DNA from: an uncultured bacterium | Lineage (GTDB): Bacteria > Babelota > Babeliae > Babelales > Vermiphilaceae | Reading direction: 5' to 3' | NCBI GenBank assembly: GCA_963713925.1 | Contig: OY970212.1 | Location: forward strand, 320,001-384,000 | DNA: 64,000 bases | Part shown: piece after piece, positions 8,953 through 52,400 of the stretch | How the letters are laid out: every line of letters begins with the position of its first letter | Position numbering within the stretch: the stretch's first letter is position 1 | The notes under the pieces: model-generated | Seen by the model: only the letters and a program-made list of their open reading frames with translations | What the model was told of the DNA's origin: nothing | Databases searched by the model: none | Program-made: the position numbers and the translations under genes

Positions 8953-11448
8953 TCAGTCGACGCTAACGGTCATGTGCCATCCATCAGCGCGCTCTTCAAG
9001 CATATCGATAGCTTCAGCATCCGCTTGATATACAATTGAAATAGCTTGTGAAACGCCCTTAATGGTTTGTTCGCACATGCGTATCTGCTCAATCAATTTT
9101 GGATTGAGTGAACCGATGGTGAGTGTTTGAAGCCCTGTTTTGAGCGACAGTTGCCGCTCCGTTTTTAACTTTCTGATTTGTTGAACAAGCGCAATAATCT
9201 TACTGCCATATTCATGCGCGTGCATAAAGTTTTCGCGTGATTGTAGTGCGCTAAACTTTGTTTGATGCAATGAAGGAACGCCGATCTCTTTTTTGTAAAT
9301 CAATTGATAGAGCGTTTCGGTTACATGCGGGATATAAGGTGCATACATTTGCAAGATGCGCAATGCAACATGATACAAAGTTGCTTTGGTTGCTTTGACA
9401 ATCTCAGGAGAATAAAGCTCTGGTTTAAACAATTGATCTTTGATCAGCTCAAGGTAGTTGTCGCAAAAATTGTGCCAGAAACAGTGTTCAACGCGATCAA
9501 GCGCGAGACCAAATTCATGTTGCTCAAAATACTTGCGATATTGCTGATAGCATTCGCTTGTTTGATGAATGATCCATTCATTGAGCAAGCCAAGCTGAAG
9601 CCGTTCATCAGTTGGCTTGTATGAGCTGAGATGTTCTTCAACAAAGCGGAATGCATTCCACAATTTGGTCACAAGCCGTTGGCCGATTTTCAATTGTGTG
9701 TCAGAAAAAGCAATATCAGTGCCCAAGGATCCGGTTGCTGTCCAATAGCGGATAACGTCAGCGCTGTAAGTGTTGAGTAAATTTTCTGGTTCAAGCGGAT
9801 TGTTGCCTTGCGATTTTGAGATTTTTTCCTTATTGCCGGCAAGTACGTGCCCGGAAATAACAATATCTTTCCATGGAATAATGCCATCGTGCATCCATGA
9901 TTTTACAATCGTGTAGAATGCCCATGTTCTGATAATGTCGTGCGCTTGCGGACGCATTGCCATCGGCAAGAATTCTTCAATCCCGGTTTCAAATGGATTT
10001 GTATTTTTATCATGCAAGGATGCGCAAATATAAGGAGTTATTGATGATGTATTCCAGGTATCCATCACATCAGTATCAGGACGTAGATCTGTGCTTCCGC
10101 AACCACATGACGGGGCCCCCGTGCCTTTAGCATGGGGTATATTTCCTGGAAAGCTTTGTTCTTGTGGATCAACTGGCAATGACTCTAGTGGAGCAATGAG
10201 CGGTTTGTCACACTTGTTGCAGTACCACACCGGAAATGGAATGCCAAAAAAGCGTTGGCGGGATAAGCACCAATCCCAAGAAATATTTTCAACCCAGTTT
10301 TGATATCTACTTTTCATGTAGGCTGGATACCAATTGATTTGATCGGCAAGCTCGATAAACGTCTTTTTATAATCCATAATATTCAAGAACCATTGAGACA
10401 TATTCATGTACTCAATTTCTTTCTTACAACGTTCATGGATATTGACTGAATGTATAATTGGCTTTTGCTCAATCAAAAGATTCTGTTCTTTGAGTTTGGC
10501 AATAATTGCTTCTCGAGCTGGATGAACCTTTAACCCACCAATGAAAGGTATATCAGCCTTGAATTTGCCATCAAAACCAATCGATTGCTTATATTCAAGT
10601 TTATGTTTTTTATACCATTCAATGTCAGTCTTGTCGCCGAAGGTACAACACATAACAAGGCCCGTGCCTTTGGTCGGTTCAACTTTTTCATCAGCAATAA
10701 CAGGTACCGTGAAATTAAATAATGGCACTTTTGCCCGCGTGCCGGCCAGATGCGTGTATCGTTTATCGTCAGGATGATAGAAGAGCGCAACGCACGAAGG
10801 AAGCAACTCTGGGCGCGTGGTGCCAATTAATAGATCATTACCATTTTCATCTGAGAATACGATAGTATTAAAAAATGAGGCAACCTGTGCGTCTTCGAGC
10901 TCGGCTTGGGCCACTGAGGTGCGGTCGGTGGTGCAGTAGAGGGCAGGCTCAAGTTTTTTATAGACCAATCCTTTATTGACGAGGCGAATAAACGATTCTT
11001 GAGATAGTTTGCGAACGTTGGGAGCTATAGTCGAATAGGAAAGATCCCAGTCAACAGAGAGTCCCATTTTTCGCCAAAGCTGAATAAACTGCTCTTCGGC
11101 AGCATGGCTTTCTTCCAAACATATTTTGATAAATTCTGATCGAGGAAGCTGATGGGCAACAATCTCACGTTTTTTTTCAACAAAGCGCTCAGTTGCAAGG
11201 CCGTTATCATCAAACCCAAAGGGGTAAAAGACAGACTTGCCATCCATCCGCGCAAATCGGGCACTGATATCCGTTTGGGTGTATGAAAAAATATGGCCGA
11301 TATGGAGCTTGCCGGAAACGGTCGGCGGAGGTGTGTCTATTGAATATAAAGGTCCGGGATTGTGTTTGGCCTTATAAGTTTCCTGCTCTGTCCACAGCTC
11401 GTGTGCCTTTTTTTCGTGTAATTTTGAATCGTACTGTTTTTCCATCAT
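8953..11448 (-). CDS. valS: Valine--tRNA ligase (archaeal/Rickettsia-type, no long C-terminal coiled coil)
   Basis: DTPPPTVSGKLHIGH, DWCLSRQRFFG, RPQAHDIIRTWAFYT, KISKSQGN. Confidence 0.97.
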   Translation of the reverse strand: MMEKQYDSKLHEKKAHELWTEQETYKAKHNPGPLYSIDTPPPTVSGKLHIGHIFSYTQTDISARFARMDGKSVFYPFGFDDNGLATERFVEKKREIVAHQLPRSEFIKICLEESHAAEEQFIQLWRKMGLSVDWDLSYSTIAPNVRKLSQESFIRLVNKGLVYKKLEPALYCTTDRTSVAQAELEDAQVASFFNTIVFSDENGNDLLIGTTRPELLPSCVALFYHPDDKRYTHLAGTRAKVPLFNFTVPVIADEKVEPTKGTGLVMCCTFGDKTDIEWYKKHKLEYKQSIGFDGKFKADIPFIGGLKVHPAREAIIAKLKEQNLLIEQKPIIHSVNIHERCKKEIEYMNMSQWFLNIMDYKKTFIELADQINWYPAYMKSRYQNWVENISWDWCLSRQRFFGIPFPVWYCNKCDKPLIAPLESLPVDPQEQSFPGNIPHAKGTGAPSCGCGSTDLRPDTDVMDTWNTSSITPYICASLHDKNTNPFETGIEEFLPMAMRPQAHDIIRTWAFYTIVKSWMHDGIIPWKDIVISGHVLAGNKEKISKSQGNNPLEPENLLNTYSADVIRYWTATGSLGTDIAFSDTQLKIGQRLVTKLWNAFRFVEEHLSSYKPTDERLQLGLLNEWIIHQTSECYQQYRKYFEQHEFGLALDRVEHCFWHNFCDNYLELIKDQLFKPELYSPEIVKATKATLYHVALRILQMYAPYIPHVTETLYQLIYKKEIGVPSLHQTKFSALQSRENFMHAHEYGSKIIALVQQIRKLKTERQLSLKTGLQTLTIGSLNPKLIEQIRMCEQTIKGVSQAISIVYQADAEAIDMLEERADGWHMTVSVD
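10112..10140 (+). repeat. Mini-hairpin repeat embedded in frame in valS
   Basis: ggggcccccgtgcctttagcatggggtat, nearly identical to the intergenic copy at ~43460-43487. Confidence 0.8.
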
Positions 11449-21067: not shown

Positions 21068-21209
21068 AGCTTATACGAAAATTAAGCATTCTAACTAAAA
21101 AAGGGTTGGTTGTCATGCTGAACTTGTTTCAGCATCCAGGTTAAGTAGATCCTGAAATAAATTCAGGATGACATAGCAATAAGGAATTTCTGGGATTTTC
21201 GGATAAGCT
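21068..21209. repeat. Nested palindromic element: outer 15-bp inverted repeat around an inner double hairpin (21111-21173)
   Basis: agcttatacgaaaat / attttcggataagct; inner tgtcatgctgaacttgtttcagcatc...gatcctgaaataaattcaggatgaca. Confidence 0.75.
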
Positions 21210-31508: not shown

Positions 31509-31586
31509 GATTTTGGGTCCCATGCCTTAGCATGGGCAAAATTGGCCCCGCACCGCAGTGCGGGTAAAGTAGTTTGGAGCAGTATT

Positions 31587-33194: not shown

Positions 33195-33866
33195 GTGAAA
33201 AAATCTCTACTATTACTTTCGTTGTTTATGTTTTCAGTGCGAGCAGATGCTGATCTTGATCGTTATTTGAGATCAACGTCCAGCAGAGCGACGCTCGAAT
33301 CTCCGGTGCTTGCGTTGATCGATGGATTGGCAATGGGTATTGATGGTCAGAAAATCGGTTTTATGTTGCGAGTCAGAAGAGATTTGCAAAAAATACAAGG
33401 TGTGCGATCGCATGAAGATCATTCGATTTCTCACGAAGGAATTTTTGAGTTTGATGGAAAGCTTTATTCTATTCATGGGCTTGCAACTATGGAACATCTT
33501 GCTTTAGAAAATCATGATTCAGAAATGGTCGCAAGACTTCATACTATTCTTGGTGATGCGCGCAGCTATTTCTTGGCAAAAGTGAAACAGTTCATGTCGG
33601 TTGCTCGCGGTTCAAAACGTCAGATGTTGTTACTTATTGAAGAATGGTGTGCAAAGAATAAGCGAGCAAAAAGTATTTTGCTTCGCTGGGGCGGGACAAA
33701 AGACGGCGATGAAGATCGTCAATTCCATGCGGATGCAACTTCATTTATACACTTTGATGAATTTTGCACTGATCTGATATTCTTTATAGAAGATTTGATT
33801 CGCAGCTGTCCGAAGGCATTTGCACAATTTAAGCAAATGATTGAGAAGCAACAAGAAAATAAGTGA
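33195..33866 (+). CDS. Secreted hypothetical protein
   Basis: GAGGA then GTG; signal peptide ...SVRA. Confidence 0.75.
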   Translation: MKKSLLLLSLFMFSVRADADLDRYLRSTSSRATLESPVLALIDGLAMGIDGQKIGFMLRVRRDLQKIQGVRSHEDHSISHEGIFEFDGKLYSIHGLATMEHLALENHDSEMVARLHTILGDARSYFLAKVKQFMSVARGSKRQMLLLIEEWCAKNKRAKSILLRWGGTKDGDEDRQFHADATSFIHFDEFCTDLIFFIEDLIRSCPKAFAQFKQMIEKQQENK

Positions 33867-33920
33867 AGCTCGCGCGGCCTAAAGGCCGTGGCTTTCTTAT
33901 TTAATAAAATAGTCTCAAAT

Positions 33921-34307
33921 CGTTCGTGGTGAGCGTAGTGCAACGAAGTCGAACCATACGAACAAGAAAATAGATATGCAAAATTTTTATGTATATATTC
34001 TTCAATGCAGTGATAACTCATATTACACTGGCCATACCGATAATATCGAGCTACGAATTCAAGAACATCAAAGCGGTCGGTATCAAGGTTATACCGCGAC
34101 ACGCCTGCCGGTACAACTAGTTTTAGTTGAAACAATGGCTTCTCGTGCGGATGCTTTGGAAGCAGAAATGCAAATTAAGAAATGGTCACGCAAGAAAAAA
34201 GAGATTCTTATTAAATATGGATGGCAGGGAATGAAAAGCTTTGCAAAACAATACAAGTAAGAAAGTTCGTATGGTTCGACTTCGTTGCACTACGCTCACC
34301 ACGAACG
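33921..34307. mobile_element. Putative GIY-YIG-encoding element bounded by perfect 43-bp inverted repeats
   Basis: 33921-33963 cgttcgtggtgagcgtagtgcaacgaagtcgaaccatacgaac is the exact reverse complement of 34265-34307. Confidence 0.75.
33976..34260 (+). CDS. Small GIY-YIG nuclease (UPF0213/YhbQ-like)
   Basis: FYVYIL.C.D.SYYTG.T....R..EH..G; ALEAEMQIKKWSRKKK. Confidence 0.92.
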   Translation: MQNFYVYILQCSDNSYYTGHTDNIELRIQEHQSGRYQGYTATRLPVQLVLVETMASRADALEAEMQIKKWSRKKKEILIKYGWQGMKSFAKQYK

Positions 34308-34340
34308 CCTATACATCACACAAAAAAAATTGATTACATT

Positions 34341-36515
34341 ATGAATGAATTACAATTGAGTGGTACTGTTGAGCGACATCTTTTTCAAAACTCTGAAAAC
34401 GGTTACGCAGTTTCTGTGATAAGTGTTTCTGATCGACAAACCATTGTTGTCAAAGGTCACATGGCGCATGTGCAACCAGGTGAACAAGTACTGGTCACTG
34501 GCGCATGGGTGCAGCATCCCAAATTTGGCAAGCAGTTTGAGGCTGCAACATGTGTCACGCAAGTTCCCACAAGCCTTGTGGGGCTCAAAAAATATTTGGG
34601 CTCAGGTCTCATTAAGGGAATTGGTCCATCATACGCACAACGATTAATTGATGCATTCGGTTCACAAGTGCTCGAAGTCATAGATAAGCATCCGGAAAAA
34701 TTGACGCTTGTTGAAGGAATTGGTCAAAAGCGAGCGCAAGAGATTACCACTGCTTGGCAATCGCAAAAAGATATCGCTTCCATTATGGTCTTTTTACAAG
34801 AGAAGGGCGTTTCCCCTGCGTATGCGGTTAAGATTTATAAAAAATATGGACAAGCTTCTATTGCGATGGTGCAAGAAAATCCGTATCGCTTGGCGGAGGA
34901 TATTTGGGGAATAGGTTTTAAGCTTGCAGATCAAATTGCGCAAGCGATTGGTATTGCTTCCGATTCATTAAAACGGGTGATGGCTGCTTATTTGCATCAA
35001 TTATCAGTAGAAGCCTCAAGCGGGCATTTATATTCGTTCATTGAGCCTCTCAAACAAAAGACGGCACAATTGCTCGAGTTTGATCTGCAAGAACAAGCGC
35101 AGAAGCTCAAGAATGCGTTACATCAATTGCATGATGAAGGTAAGATTAAACTGATCAGCAGTGGTGATGAACATTACATTGGGTTGGCGTTACATTATTT
35201 TACCGAAAAAAATGTTGCCGATCGTATCAAACTTCTTTTAAGCCAGTCTCCTACCGTCAGCTACGATACGAACGTGATATACAACAAACTGCGCGCTCCA
35301 GATGCGAACAAAAAAATTCATCTCAATGAAGATCAACAGCATGGCATTGTCACGGCATTATCGCATCAAATATCGATCATCACGGGCGGACCGGGGACCG
35401 GTAAAACGACATTAATTAAAGAGTTGCTTGATATTATTGATGAACACAGGGCTGTGTACCGGCTTGCTGCTCCCACCGGACGCGCAGCAAAACGAATCAC
35501 TGAGGGCACGCAGCGCAATGCGGCGACAATACATCGATTGCTCGAGTTTGATTTTTTAACGCATCGATTTTTGAAAAATGAACAAAATGCGCTCAAGGTT
35601 GATTTTCTTATCATCGATGAATCATCAATGCTTGACGTGTTTCTCATGCATAGTGTACTGAAGGCAATTCCGTTTGGTGCGCGTGTTGTTTTTATCGGTG
35701 ACATTGATCAGCTCCCGTCAGTCGGGGCCGGCAATGTGTTGCATGATATGATTGTCAGCGGCGTTGTGCCGACGGTGCGTCTCAAAACAATATTCCGACA
35801 AGCCCAAGACAGTATGATTGTAGTCAACGCTCACCGCGTAAATAGCGGTCAATTCCCGCTCGGCTATCAAGAAGGTGCGCGCAGAGATTTTATTTTCATC
35901 AAAGAAGAGAACCCCGAACAAGCGATGACACACATTCGGGAGCTTCTGCTCAAGCGGCTTGGCCTTCATGGCATGCGTGCCGAGGATGCAACGATCTTGG
36001 TGCCTATGAACAAAACAATTGTCGGCGCACAAACGATGAATGCACAGCTGCAGGAGTTACTCAATCATAATCAAGAACGTGTGGAACATCATGGCACGAC
36101 CTTTAAAATGGGTGATCGAGTCATGCAGATTCGCAACAATTACGATAAAATCGTGTTTAATGGCGATGTTGGCATCATAGAAGAAATAACGTCTGAAAAA
36201 AAGTTGCGCGTGAATTATTCCGATCGGATCGTTGAATACGAATTCAATGAGCTCGATGAGTTAACGCTCGCCTATGCAATGACGATTCATAAAAGCCAGG
36301 GATCGGAATATCCGGCGGTGATCATTCCGATTTTTATGCAACATTTTACTCTTTTGCAACGAAATTTGGTGTACACTGCAATTACGCGCGCTAAGCGTTT
36401 GTGTGTTCTGATCGGGCAAACGAAGGCAATTGCGATGGCCATTAACAATGACAAAGGAACGGTTCGATTAACATTGCTGAAACAATTTTTAACTTCGGAT
36501 CTTGCGTGTCGATGA
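34341..36515 (+). CDS. recD2: ATP-dependent RecD2-like DNA helicase
   Basis: HPKFGKQF, HhH IKGIG, TGGPGTGKTT, APTGRAA, DESSM, GDIDQL, TIHKSQGSE, YTAITRAK. Confidence 0.95.
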   Translation: MNELQLSGTVERHLFQNSENGYAVSVISVSDRQTIVVKGHMAHVQPGEQVLVTGAWVQHPKFGKQFEAATCVTQVPTSLVGLKKYLGSGLIKGIGPSYAQRLIDAFGSQVLEVIDKHPEKLTLVEGIGQKRAQEITTAWQSQKDIASIMVFLQEKGVSPAYAVKIYKKYGQASIAMVQENPYRLAEDIWGIGFKLADQIAQAIGIASDSLKRVMAAYLHQLSVEASSGHLYSFIEPLKQKTAQLLEFDLQEQAQKLKNALHQLHDEGKIKLISSGDEHYIGLALHYFTEKNVADRIKLLLSQSPTVSYDTNVIYNKLRAPDANKKIHLNEDQQHGIVTALSHQISIITGGPGTGKTTLIKELLDIIDEHRAVYRLAAPTGRAAKRITEGTQRNAATIHRLLEFDFLTHRFLKNEQNALKVDFLIIDESSMLDVFLMHSVLKAIPFGARVVFIGDIDQLPSVGAGNVLHDMIVSGVVPTVRLKTIFRQAQDSMIVVNAHRVNSGQFPLGYQEGARRDFIFIKEENPEQAMTHIRELLLKRLGLHGMRAEDATILVPMNKTIVGAQTMNAQLQELLNHNQERVEHHGTTFKMGDRVMQIRNNYDKIVFNGDVGIIEEITSEKKLRVNYSDRIVEYEFNELDELTLAYAMTIHKSQGSEYPAVIIPIFMQHFTLLQRNLVYTAITRAKRLCVLIGQTKAIAMAINNDKGTVRLTLLKQFLTSDLACR

Positions 36516-36554: not shown

Positions 36555-36747
36555 CCGTTCGTGGCGAGCAGAACGGGTTCCCGATCGTAGCGTAAGTGTA
36601 GATTGGGGTTAAAACGTAGTGCAGTCGAACCATACGAACAAAAAAATAAATGTGCATGTATATAGCGGGAAATGAAAAATTTTGTAAAAAAGATACAAAA
36701 AAAGTTCGTATGGTTCGACTCCGTTGCACTCCGCTCACCACGAACGG
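36555..36747. mobile_element. Internally deleted, non-autonomous copy of the GIY-YIG element
   Basis: Same arms (right arm 36704-36746, 2 mismatches) plus decayed 5' and 3' ends of the nuclease gene; left arm interrupted by a mini-hairpin repeat. Confidence 0.75.
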
Positions 36748-43407: not shown

Positions 43408-43500
43408 GAGTCCCCGTGCGGATTCGGGGTCCCCATACTTGGGTATGGGGTGAAAATTCGGGGCCCCCGTGCCTTGGCATGGGGTATGGGCTTGGGGTAT
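43408..43500 (+). repeat. Stacked mini-hairpin repeats upstream of rlmB
   Basis: ggggtccccatacttgggtatggggtg and ggggcccccgtgccttggcatggggtat, plus partial copies. Confidence 0.75.
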
Positions 43501-43514
43501 ATTTTGGAGTTAAT

Positions 43515-44258
43515 ATGGCGCAGCAACCTCGTGTTGACGGAGAAATTGTGTATGGGATCAATCCCATCGTTGAACTTTTGCAGGCGAAGCGACGCAAGCT
43601 TATTAGTCTGTATACGACAAAGCCAACTCCGAAATCATGGTCAAAAATTGAACAGTTAATTTCGGGGCGCTCAGTGCAAGTCAAATTTGTCTCAAAAGAT
43701 CAGCTCGCTTCCTTGGCAGGCACAACAGATCATCAAGGGGTTGTCGGTATTGCCCAAAAGATGACATTCCGTTCAAAACCTTTTACTCCTGAGACTGCGC
43801 CACTATTGGTGCTTCTTGATGGGATTCAAGATCCTCGCAATATCGGAGCTATTTTACGCTCGGTCTATTGCTCCGGGTTTTCGGGCGTCATTATTCCTCA
43901 AAAAAACAGTGCTCCGCTCAATGCAGTCGCGCTCAAATCTTCAGCCGGGCTGGCCGAGCATCTGCAGATTTATACACCGGCAAGTTCAGCTGTTGCTGTG
44001 CAAGAGTTAAAAAAAGCGGGATATCAGATCTATTTGGCTGCTTTTAACGGCGAAAATGCGGCAACACTCGAATATAAAAAACCATTATGCTTAGTCATCG
44101 GCAGCGAAGGGTCGGGCATCGACCAATCACTATTAAAAGCAGGCACGCAGGTGACGCTTCCCCAAGTGAATGCGCAAGTCTCTTACAATGCCTCCGTTGC
44201 GGCCGGTATTTTGCTCTTCTTGATTGCAATGCAACAGAGGTCTATTGCTATCCCCTGA
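43515..44258 (+). CDS. rlmB: 23S rRNA Gm2251 methyltransferase (SpoU/TrmH family)
   Basis: YGINPI, HQGV, DPRNIGAILRS, IGSEG, SYNASVA; GGAG then ATG 43515. Confidence 0.9.
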   Translation: MAQQPRVDGEIVYGINPIVELLQAKRRKLISLYTTKPTPKSWSKIEQLISGRSVQVKFVSKDQLASLAGTTDHQGVVGIAQKMTFRSKPFTPETAPLLVLLDGIQDPRNIGAILRSVYCSGFSGVIIPQKNSAPLNAVALKSSAGLAEHLQIYTPASSAVAVQELKKAGYQIYLAAFNGENAATLEYKKPLCLVIGSEGSGIDQSLLKAGTQVTLPQVNAQVSYNASVAAGILLFLIAMQQRSIAIP

Positions 44259-47140: not shown

Positions 47141-47545
47141 ATTTTGCGCCTTGTCTATTGTTCCGGGTTTTCGGGCGCCATTATCCCTCAAAAAAACAGC
47201 GCTCGGCTCAACGCAGTCGCACTCAAATCTTCAGCCGGACTGGCCGAGCATCTGCAGATATATACACCGGCGAGTTCAGCCGTTGCTGTGCAAGAGTTAA
47301 AAAAAGCGGGATATCAGATCTATTTGGCAGCTTTTAATGGCGAAAATGCGGCAACCATCGAATACCGAAAACCATTATGCTTAGTCATCGGCAGCGAAGG
47401 GTCGGGCATCGATCAATCATTATTAAAAGCAGGGACACAGGTGACGCTTCCGCAAGTGAATACGCAGGTCTCTTATAACGCTTCCGTTGCGGCCGGTATT
47501 TTGCTTTTCTTGATTGCAATGCAACAGAAGTCTATCGGTAGTTGA
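47141..47545 (+). pseudogene. rlmB: 5'-truncated duplicate of the rlmB 3' half
   Basis: 47141-47535 closely matches 43851-44245; lacks the N-terminal domain and DPRN motif. Confidence 0.85.
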
Positions 47546-49443: not shown

Positions 49444-52400
49444 ATGAAGCATTTAATACTTCGATATGTGTTATCTTCACTATTAGTCGTATGTGGATTT
49501 ACGCATGCTCAAGACGAGCAAGAAAATTTTGAAAAAATGAAATCATCTTCTGAATCGCAATCTTCGGAGCCTTTAACCGAAGAAATAGATCAACAGGCCC
49601 CGGAATCTCTCATTGATTGTCTCAATACTTTGCACGCATGTTTGCTTGCGTGTGTTGAACTTGATTATCAACCCGAATCGCTTGAGCAAATTGTGCAATG
49701 GCTGAATGATGAAAATCATGATGAAATTACGCTTGCTGAGCTCGTTGAATTACTTGTTGAAGAACTTGAGGCGACCACACTCGATGATGATCCAATTGCG
49801 GAACTTGCAAAAAAGTACATTCCTCAATTGGAACAAAATGTCGATATGTTGCGTAGTCGCTCTCTTTCTTGCGGAGACCAGAATGCGCATGAAATCGATT
49901 TAGGTGTGAGTCGTCGCGCACGCATGGGTGCAGCATTGCGCTCAAGCACATTTGTCAGACCGACATCATTGACGACAAATGGCAATCTCTATATGGTCCA
50001 TTCAAACACAGCTTCTAACGTTGGCTTTATATATAAAAATAACGTTGTCTTTATGAATGACCTGGGCACCAACAGTGTTGGGCTTGGAGCTGCCGCGGGT
50101 GAGGATATAACGACAGCTTCAGATTGCACCGCAATTGGCGCAAATGCGCTATCGCTCAACACAACAGGCAGCGACAACACCGCCGTTGGATACAATACAC
50201 TTGCGCTCTGCGTAGCCGGGGGCACAAACGTTGCCGTTGGATCGCAAGCTCTTTCAAAAACAACGGCAAGCAGTACAACTGCTGTTGGATATCAGGCAGG
50301 AACAAATCTTACCACAGGAACACAAAACACTATGCTCGGATATCAAGCGCTCATGTCGGCTACCGGTGCTACCGACAACACTGCGCTCGGATACCAAACA
50401 ATGGTCAATTCGACCGGCGGAGGAAGCAATGTCGCCGTTGGATCATTCTCATTACAAAATTACACTAGCAATTTTACGGTAGCCGTTGGACACCAAGCAG
50501 GACAAGCACTCATTTCAGGAAATGAAAACACCGTGATCGGTTATCAGGCAATGGTCAATAGTGCAGCGGGCGCGGGAAATGTTGTTGTCGGCTATCAAGC
50601 AATGAAGAATGGTGGATCGAGCAACAATGTCGCCGTCGGAGCACAGTCATTGGAAAGTTGTACCGCAGGAAATACAACTGCTGTCGGATTTTTGGCGGGA
50701 CAGCAACTTACGTCAGGATCTCAAAACACCATGCTTGGTTATGACGCATTATCCTCAAGTTTAACAGACTCCTCAAATGTCGCTGTCGGGTATGAAGCGA
50801 TGACGAATGCAATCGGCGGCTCAAACAATGTCGCTGTCGGTGTAAGCGCGTTAAGTAACATCACTGTGGGCAATACTACGGCCGTCGGATATCAAGCGGG
50901 AACTGCACTTACATCAGGAAACCAAAATACGGCAGTCGGATATCAAGCTCTTTCTTCTGCAACGACATCTTCACAAAATACTGCAGTCGGATCACAAGCG
51001 ATGGGTAACTCGACAGGAGGAAGCCAATGTGTCGCGGTTGGTCAGAATGCTTTAATTAACAATGCCTCAGGGGGAGACTTCAACGTTGCCGTCGGAGCAA
51101 ACACGCTTTCAAGTAATACTTCAGGCAATGTCAACATTGCTATTGGGGTAAATGCTTTGGACAGTAACATAGCCGGAAGCGCAAACCTTATGATAGGTGA
51201 TAATGCTGGAGCATCCTTAATTGGCGGTGGTAATAATATCGGCATTGGTCGCTTTTCTCTCAATAGTAGTGCAACTGGTTCTACTAACGTTGCAATAGGC
51301 GAAGACGCTTTGCGGGCATATATGGGAAGCTCGAGTGTCGCAATTGGCTATCAAGCAGGACAAACACTTATAACGGGATCTCAAAACACTATACTTGGCT
51401 TTCAGGCAATGCTCTCAAGCGTGACTGGTGCGTTTAATACCGCTATCGGCTATCAAGCGATGGAATCCGCAACAATAGGTCAAAACAATGTTGCTGTTGG
51501 AGATGTAGCAATGATCGCAGCCTCCGGAAATAATAATATAGCTGTGGGAGCTAGCACGCTCGTGAGTGCTACCGGAAGTGATAATATAGGTGTGGGCTTT
51601 CAAGCACTGGAGAATGTTTCTGGAAATCAAAATATCGCTATCGGTTCATCGGCCGCCGCGGGCCTTTCCACCGGAACAAAAAACACGTGTGTAGGCTACC
51701 AAGCCCTCGGATCGGCAGTTGTAAGTAACTTCTCTCAAAATACAGCCGTTGGATGGGAATCCATGTCGAATCTCACCAACGGGTCACGAAACTGCGGCTT
51801 CGGGGATCAATCGTTGCAAAATACAACCGGGACACAAAATTGCGCTTTTGGTTCTCTTTCGGGGGAAAATCTATCTTCAGGAAGCAGTAATATTTTTATC
51901 GGAGCAGGCGCAGGACAAAATATTACTACCACTTCAAATAATATTGACATAGGAAATAATGGGACTTTAGGCGATTCCGGCATCATTAGAATTGGAACAT
52001 CAGGAACCGGAGCGGGACAACAAAATCAATGCTTTATTGCGGGAATCAGCGGATCAACTTCTTCGGGCGGTGTGGCCGTGCTCGTCAATGCAAGCGGACA
52101 ACTTGGAACAACCACTTCCTCGTTACGATATAAAGAAAACATTGCCGATATTACCAATGCGACTGAAAAAATGGCTGCTTTGCATCCCGTGCAATTTAAT
52201 TATAAAGTCGATCCGATAAAACATCTTGAATTCGGACTTATTGCCGAAGAAGTTGCACCGGTCATTCCAAATATTGTTGTCTATAATGATCAAGGGCAGA
52301 TCGAAACCGTGCAATATCACCAGCTTCCAGCACTCATCATCAAAGCATGGCAGGAGCTACAAGCGGTCGTCCAATCGCAACAAGCAGCAATCGCGACACT

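Follow-up and report, generated by a model that had tools for sequence, protein, structure and literature searches.

The window analysed here, a 64,000-nt stretch from the genome of an uncultured Vermiphilaceae bacterium (1.32 Mb, one contig), carries a 387-base cassette in which a stand-alone GIY-YIG nuclease gene lies between two inverted copies of a dispersed repeat (the arms), inserted between two conserved genes. In the reading favoured here (probability about 0.6), the cassette's own GIY-YIG enzyme likely recognises the arm, cuts, and drives the spread of the cassette and its derivatives. Genome comparisons show a discrete, inserted unit that occurs in multiple copies at unrelated sites, has given rise to a multiplied derivative, and is bounded by a co-varying motif of fixed orientation. 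The layout of such a cassette is already known from the Ssn nucleases; what is new is the comparative evidence that the whole gene-bearing unit multiplies.

The features of the region are collected in Table 1. The arms are, as an initial sequence-only reading had described, perfect 43-nt inverted repeats, with the ORF 12 nt from the left arm and its stop codon 4 nt from the right arm, giving an interior of 301 nt. Exact identity of this kind is rare: among the 38 own-genome arm copies of 43 nt, only 2 of 703 pairs are identical, one of them the window pair (median, 7 mismatches). The same reading had noticed no target-site duplication, and indeed none adjoins the arms, the best shared 4–5-mers being A/T-rich and lying 1–19 nt off. 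The unit has no adjacent duplication and its protein no DDE domain (Pfam), the features by which a classical DDE insertion sequence or a MITE would be recognised. An ORF beginning at an in-frame ATG within the nuclease gene (34221) adds 40 codons to recD2 through the right arm (34221–34340); relatives indicate that the true recD2 start is 34341 and that the longer ORF is mere read-through of the arm.

Table 1. Features of the cassette region and of the nearby gene-less derivative (positions within the window).
Feature	Position	Strand	Description
Upstream neighbour gene	33195..33866	+	Conserved, 223 aa, no Pfam family; recD2 directly 3' of it in relatives
Terminator-like stem, candidate	33873..33890	+	Just 5' of the cassette; consensus match alone (1 found vs 0.8 expected)
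Left arm	33921..33963	+	43-nt dispersed-repeat copy; CGTTCG tag outward, TGGT/ACCA stem, GAGC...TCGA core
GIY-YIG nuclease gene	33976..34260	+	Stand-alone, 94 aa; PF01541 match
Right arm	34265..34307	-	Exact reverse complement of left arm
recD2 helicase gene	34341..36515	+	TIGR01448; downstream neighbour of the cassette
Gene-less derivative of cassette, internally deleted	36556..36746	+	84-nt arm, 64-nt spacer, 43-nt arm
Derivative, 84-nt arm	36556..36639		With inserted second hairpin
Derivative, spacer	36640..36703		
Derivative, 43-nt arm	36704..36746		

The arm is widely dispersed. That it might be found nowhere else had been named as a point that would count against mobility, but the genome holds 80 full copies with fixed ends and a variable middle (33–93 nt in total), as well as half-matches, and a degenerate arm pattern matched 90 times, its reversed control once. 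None of the 80 copies lies within the cores of ORFs of at least 150 aa, although such cores make up 71% of the genome, and copies are over-represented between convergent genes (24/80, compared with 166 of 973 gaps). Pairing within 350 nt involves 55 of the 80 copies; the 28 pairs comprise 11 with tags outward, as in the cassette, and 17 with tags inward. Outer flanks of 15–45 nt are common to groups of arm copies (the left flank of the window cassette recurs in 5), so in this genome the unit does not end exactly where its arms do. Ten clustered tail flanks are explained by another tag-outward doublet family, which has a conserved spacer of a different kind.

Hairpins of two additional families, CCCATGC..GCATGGG (~34 loci) and CCCCGAT..ATTGGGG (25 strand hits), occur either free or inserted in the loop of the arm repeat. 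Example sites in the window are 36580–36612, 10118–10136, 31519–31536 and 43466–43483, with others across the genome; no partner enzyme for either family was identified. In the window, a repeat finder also listed a 300-nt direct repeat (91%) at 43851–44150 and 47141–47440 and a tandem coding repeat region at 50173–51407.

A second complete cassette is present at genome positions 141562–141981, with the same 301-nt interior and a protein 81% identical to that of the window. The dN/dS value between the two genes is 0.25, which shows, at the level of sequence, that the nuclease gene is under purifying selection. A candidate 5-nt target duplication at this cassette was rejected because its right-hand flank recurs beside other arm copies. 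The doublet downstream of recD2 is a cassette that has lost its gene: its spacer consists of both ends of the cassette interior joined together. One and the same internal deletion, retaining the first 10–14 and last 45–50 nt of the interior, is common to this doublet and to those at three other loci, which implies that the gene-less derivative multiplied after it arose. Further cassette remnants lie at genome positions 315959, 1111422, 1126422 and 1204673. A read joint that skips 33976–34258 in one sequencing run was considered as a possible excision and rejected, as the 7 letters between the joined ends are those of the deletion derivative at genome positions 315959–316110.

Comparison with relatives, a check proposed in the initial reading, shows that the site between the two neighbouring genes lacks the nuclease gene there. 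The 223-aa upstream gene was matched in 50 of 61 genomes searched, and the best 29 loci from other genomes were inspected: in all 29 it is followed by recD2 with no GIY-YIG match between them, i.e., the nuclease gene is not syntenic. The first match to recD2 begins −18 to 154 nt from the stop of the 223-aa gene in 28 of these loci, and in the remaining one the upstream gene is duplicated. A metagenome scan for close relatives of the 223-aa gene confirmed none. Where relatives do carry homologues of the cassette protein, the neighbours differ, few being common, and the gene occupies a different site in most genomes. At one of the 29 inspected loci, from another genus (L041, G017), the same gap ahead of recD2 contains an independent arm doublet with tags inward, which suggests a reused site.

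The gene was found in 21 of 60 relatives, and its presence goes together with that of the repeat: 15 of the 21 gene-bearing relatives have at least 10 repeats, compared with 10 of the 39 others (Fisher p 0.0009, 60 relatives). Viewed from the side of the repeat, the gene was found in 15/25 repeat-rich and 6/35 repeat-poor relatives. There are counter-cases of both kinds, namely the 10 of 25 repeat-rich relatives in which no such gene was found, and the 6 of 21 gene-bearing relatives with fewer than 10 repeats.

Multiplication of the gene-bearing unit is most evident in a Qipengyuania genome (G062, locus L074) that carries six arm-gene-arm units at unrelated sites. Four of the six are 81–84% alike over the cassette, and their left flanks are only 29–44% alike; two carry breaks, and three have ~40 nt beyond one arm in common (59–67%). 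Homology among the G062 cassettes stops at the arms, and in congeners the DNA matches to the cassette extend from one arm to the other. The motif is absent at all 13 orthologous Qipengyuania loci inspected; the sites being variable, an exact empty junction could not be fixed. One of the G062 cassettes has an Ssn-type gene immediately upstream, on the same strand (L203:1902-2601; G062:C3 near 286.5-287.2 kb).

Other sites have been occupied for long periods, and some are inherited vertically. Of 15 cassettes in Qipengyuania genomes other than G062, one set of 2 and one of 5 have common flanks, and in 19 of 26 sphingomonad-type loci the cassette lies ahead of the same SpoU gene. In these sphingomonad-type loci (L078, L096, L102, L113 and 14 more), the cassette precedes a SpoU/TrmJ-type methyltransferase gene and, in nearly all, follows nrdR. 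In 18 of 19 loci the nuclease ORF continues across the right arm into the SpoU gene, producing what look like GIY-YIG-SpoU fusions (Pfam checked on 4). Even the most similar paralogous cassettes are only 81–87% alike, with no near-identical copies, which implies that movement is slow or old.

That cassettes have stayed long at fixed sites in sphingomonads and in some Qipengyuania, that recent copies are lacking and that the gene is under purifying selection would also fit a domesticated ssDNA restriction function, in which the enzyme cuts the hairpin and is kept for a role in the host while the cassette is moved passively by recombination between repeats. A role of this type has been demonstrated in vivo for Neisseria SsnA, which limits recombination of incoming ssDNA (Chenal 2025, PMC11893778). 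However, six copies, some of them decaying, are more than a host function requires, the gene was found in no more than 21 of 60 relatives and in 26 of the 81 genomes of Qipengyuania, and deletion derivatives multiplied after gene loss. Domestication is therefore considered an unlikely explanation.

The window protein has a single Pfam match, to the GIY-YIG domain (PF01541, E 1.5e-17), and no NCBIfam family. Residues Y7, Y17, G19, R27, H31 and E64 are invariant in 22 homologues. Its predicted structure (pLDDT 90) has the GIY-YIG fold and matches the UPF0213 structures 1ZG2 and 1YWL, and Slx1 more weakly. Identity to Ssn references is 37–38%, and pairwise E-values are 6e-10 for the Neisseria homologue (the first residues of which are missing from the stretch compared), 2e-14 for another Ssn reference and 5e-25 for B. 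subtilis YazA; the first of these lies above the 1e-10 cut-off stated in the text of Chenal et al. 2025 (PMC11893778). In a tree of 55 proteins (98 columns), with a Neisseria homologue surrounded by nine NTS matches as Ssn anchor instead of N. meningitidis SsnA, the 11 Ssn-type proteins make up one long-branched clade (100/100) that excludes the window protein. In the best tree the group of the window protein is apart from YhbQ/YazA, though not firmly (93/93; AU p 0.29 for a tree uniting the two), and the AU test leaves room both for Ssn nested in this group and for Ssn as its sister (p 0.07 for the group as a single clade).

A GTDB scan with an alignment of 22 sequences confirmed at least 580 of 603 candidate stretches as homologues. 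The best 80 of these, a few of which overlap the relatives' loci, come from nine named phyla and from records without an assigned phylum; no homologue of the cassette protein was confirmed in viral contigs. The flanks of the homologues yielded a motif consisting of a CG(T/C)TC(G/A) tag, a 4-nt stem, GAG(C/T), a loop (from 2 to more than 60 nt), TCGA and the complementary 4 nt. The proposal that homologues generally carry co-varying inverted arms was borne out, in that the tag-outward motif lies within ~250 nt of 54 of the best 80 of at least 580 homologues. Within this same set of 80, it is found on both sides in 30, and the opposite orientation occurs 9 times upstream and 15 times downstream. 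For the relatives' loci the corresponding figures are 14/21 with the tag-outward motif and 8/21 on both sides. These counts are lower bounds because the strict pattern misses visible variants. In each of eight named phyla, genes of this one protein group lie between copies of this one motif.

The arm had been described as an imperfect hairpin. It can be drawn in this form, and its stem co-varies across species, but its folding energy is no better than that of shuffles (−5.6 kcal/mol as DNA, z −0.52; 60 of 200 shuffles equally good). The hairpin claim therefore cannot rest on energy, and it is the cross-species co-variation that argues for structure. Among 124 motif hits unselected for pairing, 89 have a perfect Watson–Crick stem, drawn from 11 stem sequences (shuffles: mean 18, max 33), and in 29 of 41 loci both arms have the same stem type (shuffled mean 8; one duplicate row dropped). 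These association and co-variation statistics are overstated, because the pattern was built from gene flanks, kin are not independent and the shuffles ignore relatedness. Even so, 11 compensatory stem types would be difficult to obtain without selection for pairing within a single strand. Two homologues (L135, Ignavibacteria; L143, Bacteroidota) carry a GTCA-type tag, as in SRMs, on a GAGY...(T/A)CGA core and branch beside the Ssn clade (96/84); theirs may be an intermediate form linking the two types of repeat, though long-branch attraction is possible.

Co-variation cannot tell DNA from RNA, and the arm might instead be an RNA-level element (a terminator or stability hairpin), with an ordinary YhbQ/YazA-like repair nuclease lying between two copies by chance. 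The avoidance of coding cores and the preference for gaps between convergent genes fit such a role, as do the best structure and sequence matches of the protein, to UPF0213 (1ZG2, 1YWL) and to YazA ahead of the Ssn references. However, an Rfam search with the arm returned no match at E<=1, the motif is absent from all six YhbQ/YazA-type loci, which lie in housekeeping operons whereas the cassette gene is at differing sites, and the multi-copy arm-to-arm units would be left unexplained. Of the alternatives weighed, this is the least credible, and very improbable.

The genome of the window encodes other candidate enzymes. An Ssn-clade gene at 104371 (L004, G000:C1:104228-104820) is flanked by its own perfect-stem, GTCA-tagged hairpin, present in 38 copies, a doublet of which lies at window ~21112–21172. 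Two nuclease types thus occur with two separate repeat families in one genome. A third small GIY-YIG type, Slx1-like (G000:C1:1102670-1102921, L001; L033, L035), has a different GC-rich hairpin-like sequence upstream and may represent a third nuclease-repeat pairing.

These enzymes raise the question of whether the arms are mobilised in trans, by a RAYT, an IS200-type Y1 transposase or the Ssn-clade protein, the GIY-YIG gene being merely captured. A hydrolytic nuclease cannot itself join strands, 10 of 25 repeat-rich genomes lack the gene, and the genome has a Y1 remnant as well as the Ssn-clade gene, all of which would be expected of a passenger. That remnant, the only Y1 match in the genome, is however a 30-residue fragment with no arm in the surrounding 1.1 kb, and in the relatives Y1 transposase genes (counted by hand) show no link with the repeat (7/25 repeat-rich, 11/35 repeat-poor). 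The Ssn-clade gene has a different repeat of its own, and the association of one protein group with one motif in eight named phyla is not expected of a captured gene. Mobilisation in trans is accordingly judged improbable.

If the cassette is spread by its own enzyme, as favoured here, the likely first step is recognition of the arm as a single-stranded hairpin, the ssDNA specificity being suggested by analogy with Ssn. By analogy with SsnA, the cut would likely fall 5' of the outward-facing tag, just outside it; with both tags outward, this would place a single cut on each strand, the two lying at opposite outer edges of the cassette. GIY-YIG enzymes are hydrolytic and cannot join strands themselves, and no joining enzyme is encoded in the cassette, so the move may be finished by host repair. 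Re-insertion is the least certain step; in it, host repair of a cut beside an arm might proceed by template switching or recombination onto another arm-bearing copy. Copying by repair would explain the absence of a target duplication, the homogenised arm pairs (identity within pairs can reach 51–65 nt in relatives), the flanks common to arm copies and the nested insertions.

A broader proposal is tentative and is put at somewhat under even odds: that cassettes of this kind form a class of autonomous ~390-bp insertion elements with a stand-alone GIY-YIG nuclease as sole enzyme, which would cut beside the terminal hairpins and leave host repair to copy the unit to new sites, generating an apparently undescribed REP-like family and REPIN-like derivatives in at least eight phyla. 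Where many REP-like repeats come from, and by what route they spread, has been asked for a long time. Material for experiments is available in a genome of a cultured genus with six arm-bounded copies, in a multiplied deletion derivative and in a genome with two nuclease types and two repeat families. Should the enzyme cut its own arm, site-specific ssDNA nucleases would extend beyond cd10448, with a recognition motif variable in stem and loop, and a function would be provided for many proteins annotated only as 'GIY-YIG nuclease family protein'.

Among known proteins, the UPF0213/YhbQ/YazA type (1ZG2, 1YWL) gives the best sequence and fold matches and has the same domain size; its genes differ in having no flanking motif. 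A literature search, with subscription journals outside its scope, found no description of the arm motif or of the protein group. The CGTC-tagged REP families are not known to have a dedicated transposase. As described in the available text, these families resemble the arm in being tagged palindromic repeats, mostly intergenic and often dimers, and differ in their 8–9-bp stems and 4–5-nt loops, compared with the 4-bp stem, non-canonical core and expandable loop of the arm motif (Di Nocera et al. 2013, PMC3733652).

The sequence-only reading had called the unit REPtron-like, an apt description in so far as a REP-like dispersed repeat has its own enzyme gene and forms a unit with it. As in RAYT/REPIN systems, an enzyme gene lies between inverted repeats, dispersed doublets have conserved spacers, and there is one repeat family per enzyme type per genome. 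The analogy fails at the enzyme, which is of GIY-YIG and not HUH/Y1 type (PF01797 is absent), and at copy number: RAYTs are described, in the text available, as single-copy genes that cannot transpose (Bertels and Rainey 2011, PMC3337134), whereas the arm-bounded cassette gene is present in 2 copies in the genome of the window and 6 in G062. In addition, one of the doublet families here has plainly arisen from the gene cassette by deletion.

The closest system is that of Ssn, and the idea of a small GIY-YIG nuclease cutting its own flanking hairpins, put forward in the initial reading, is not new, having been published in 2025. The main text of Chenal et al. (PMC11893778) describes small GIY-YIG nucleases flanked by hairpins and cutting ssDNA in a hairpin-specific manner; SsnA cuts the strand that carries its oriented hairpin, a few bases upstream of it, and leaves the reverse strand uncut. 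Ssn is defined there as essentially cd10448, with 42% of homologues flanked on both sides; cd10456, UPF0213 and YhbQ were not found in the main text or the supplements searched, and Fig. 5a of that paper might show repeats beside other clades. Shared with Ssn, as far as that text goes, are a single-domain GIY-YIG gene of ~94 aa, oriented tagged hairpin repeats on both sides, their dispersal through the genome, and conservation of the residues matching the mutated Tyr, Tyr and Glu. The differences lie in the position of the window protein outside the Ssn clade and in the repeat: the Ssn repeat is given as a CGTCA tag on a long perfect stem, whereas the arm has a CG(T/C)TC(G/A) tag, a variable 4-bp stem and a fixed GAGY...TCGA core, and this arm motif is absent from the 11 Ssn-type loci. 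Conversely, none of the 80 arm copies lies near an SRM match, and the SRM pattern occurs beside 1 of the best 80 of at least 580 GTDB homologues and 0 of 21 relative loci, a weak test, as the pattern recovers 4/4 plasmid-collection Ssn references but 1/7 Ssn-type loci of this genome and its relatives, and misses the 38-copy hairpin family described above. With its protein outside the Ssn clade and its repeat failing the SRM pattern, the cassette is a variant distinct from the published Ssn/SRM system. Chenal et al. note that the NTS-ssnA-NTS arrangement resembles an insertion sequence, propose an IS-like origin and draw the comparison with IS and RAYT in their discussion (PMC11893778). The mobility of a repeat-gene-repeat unit, left as a hypothesis in that paper, is here given comparative evidence, in the form of multi-copy units of a GIY-YIG cassette that extend from arm to arm.
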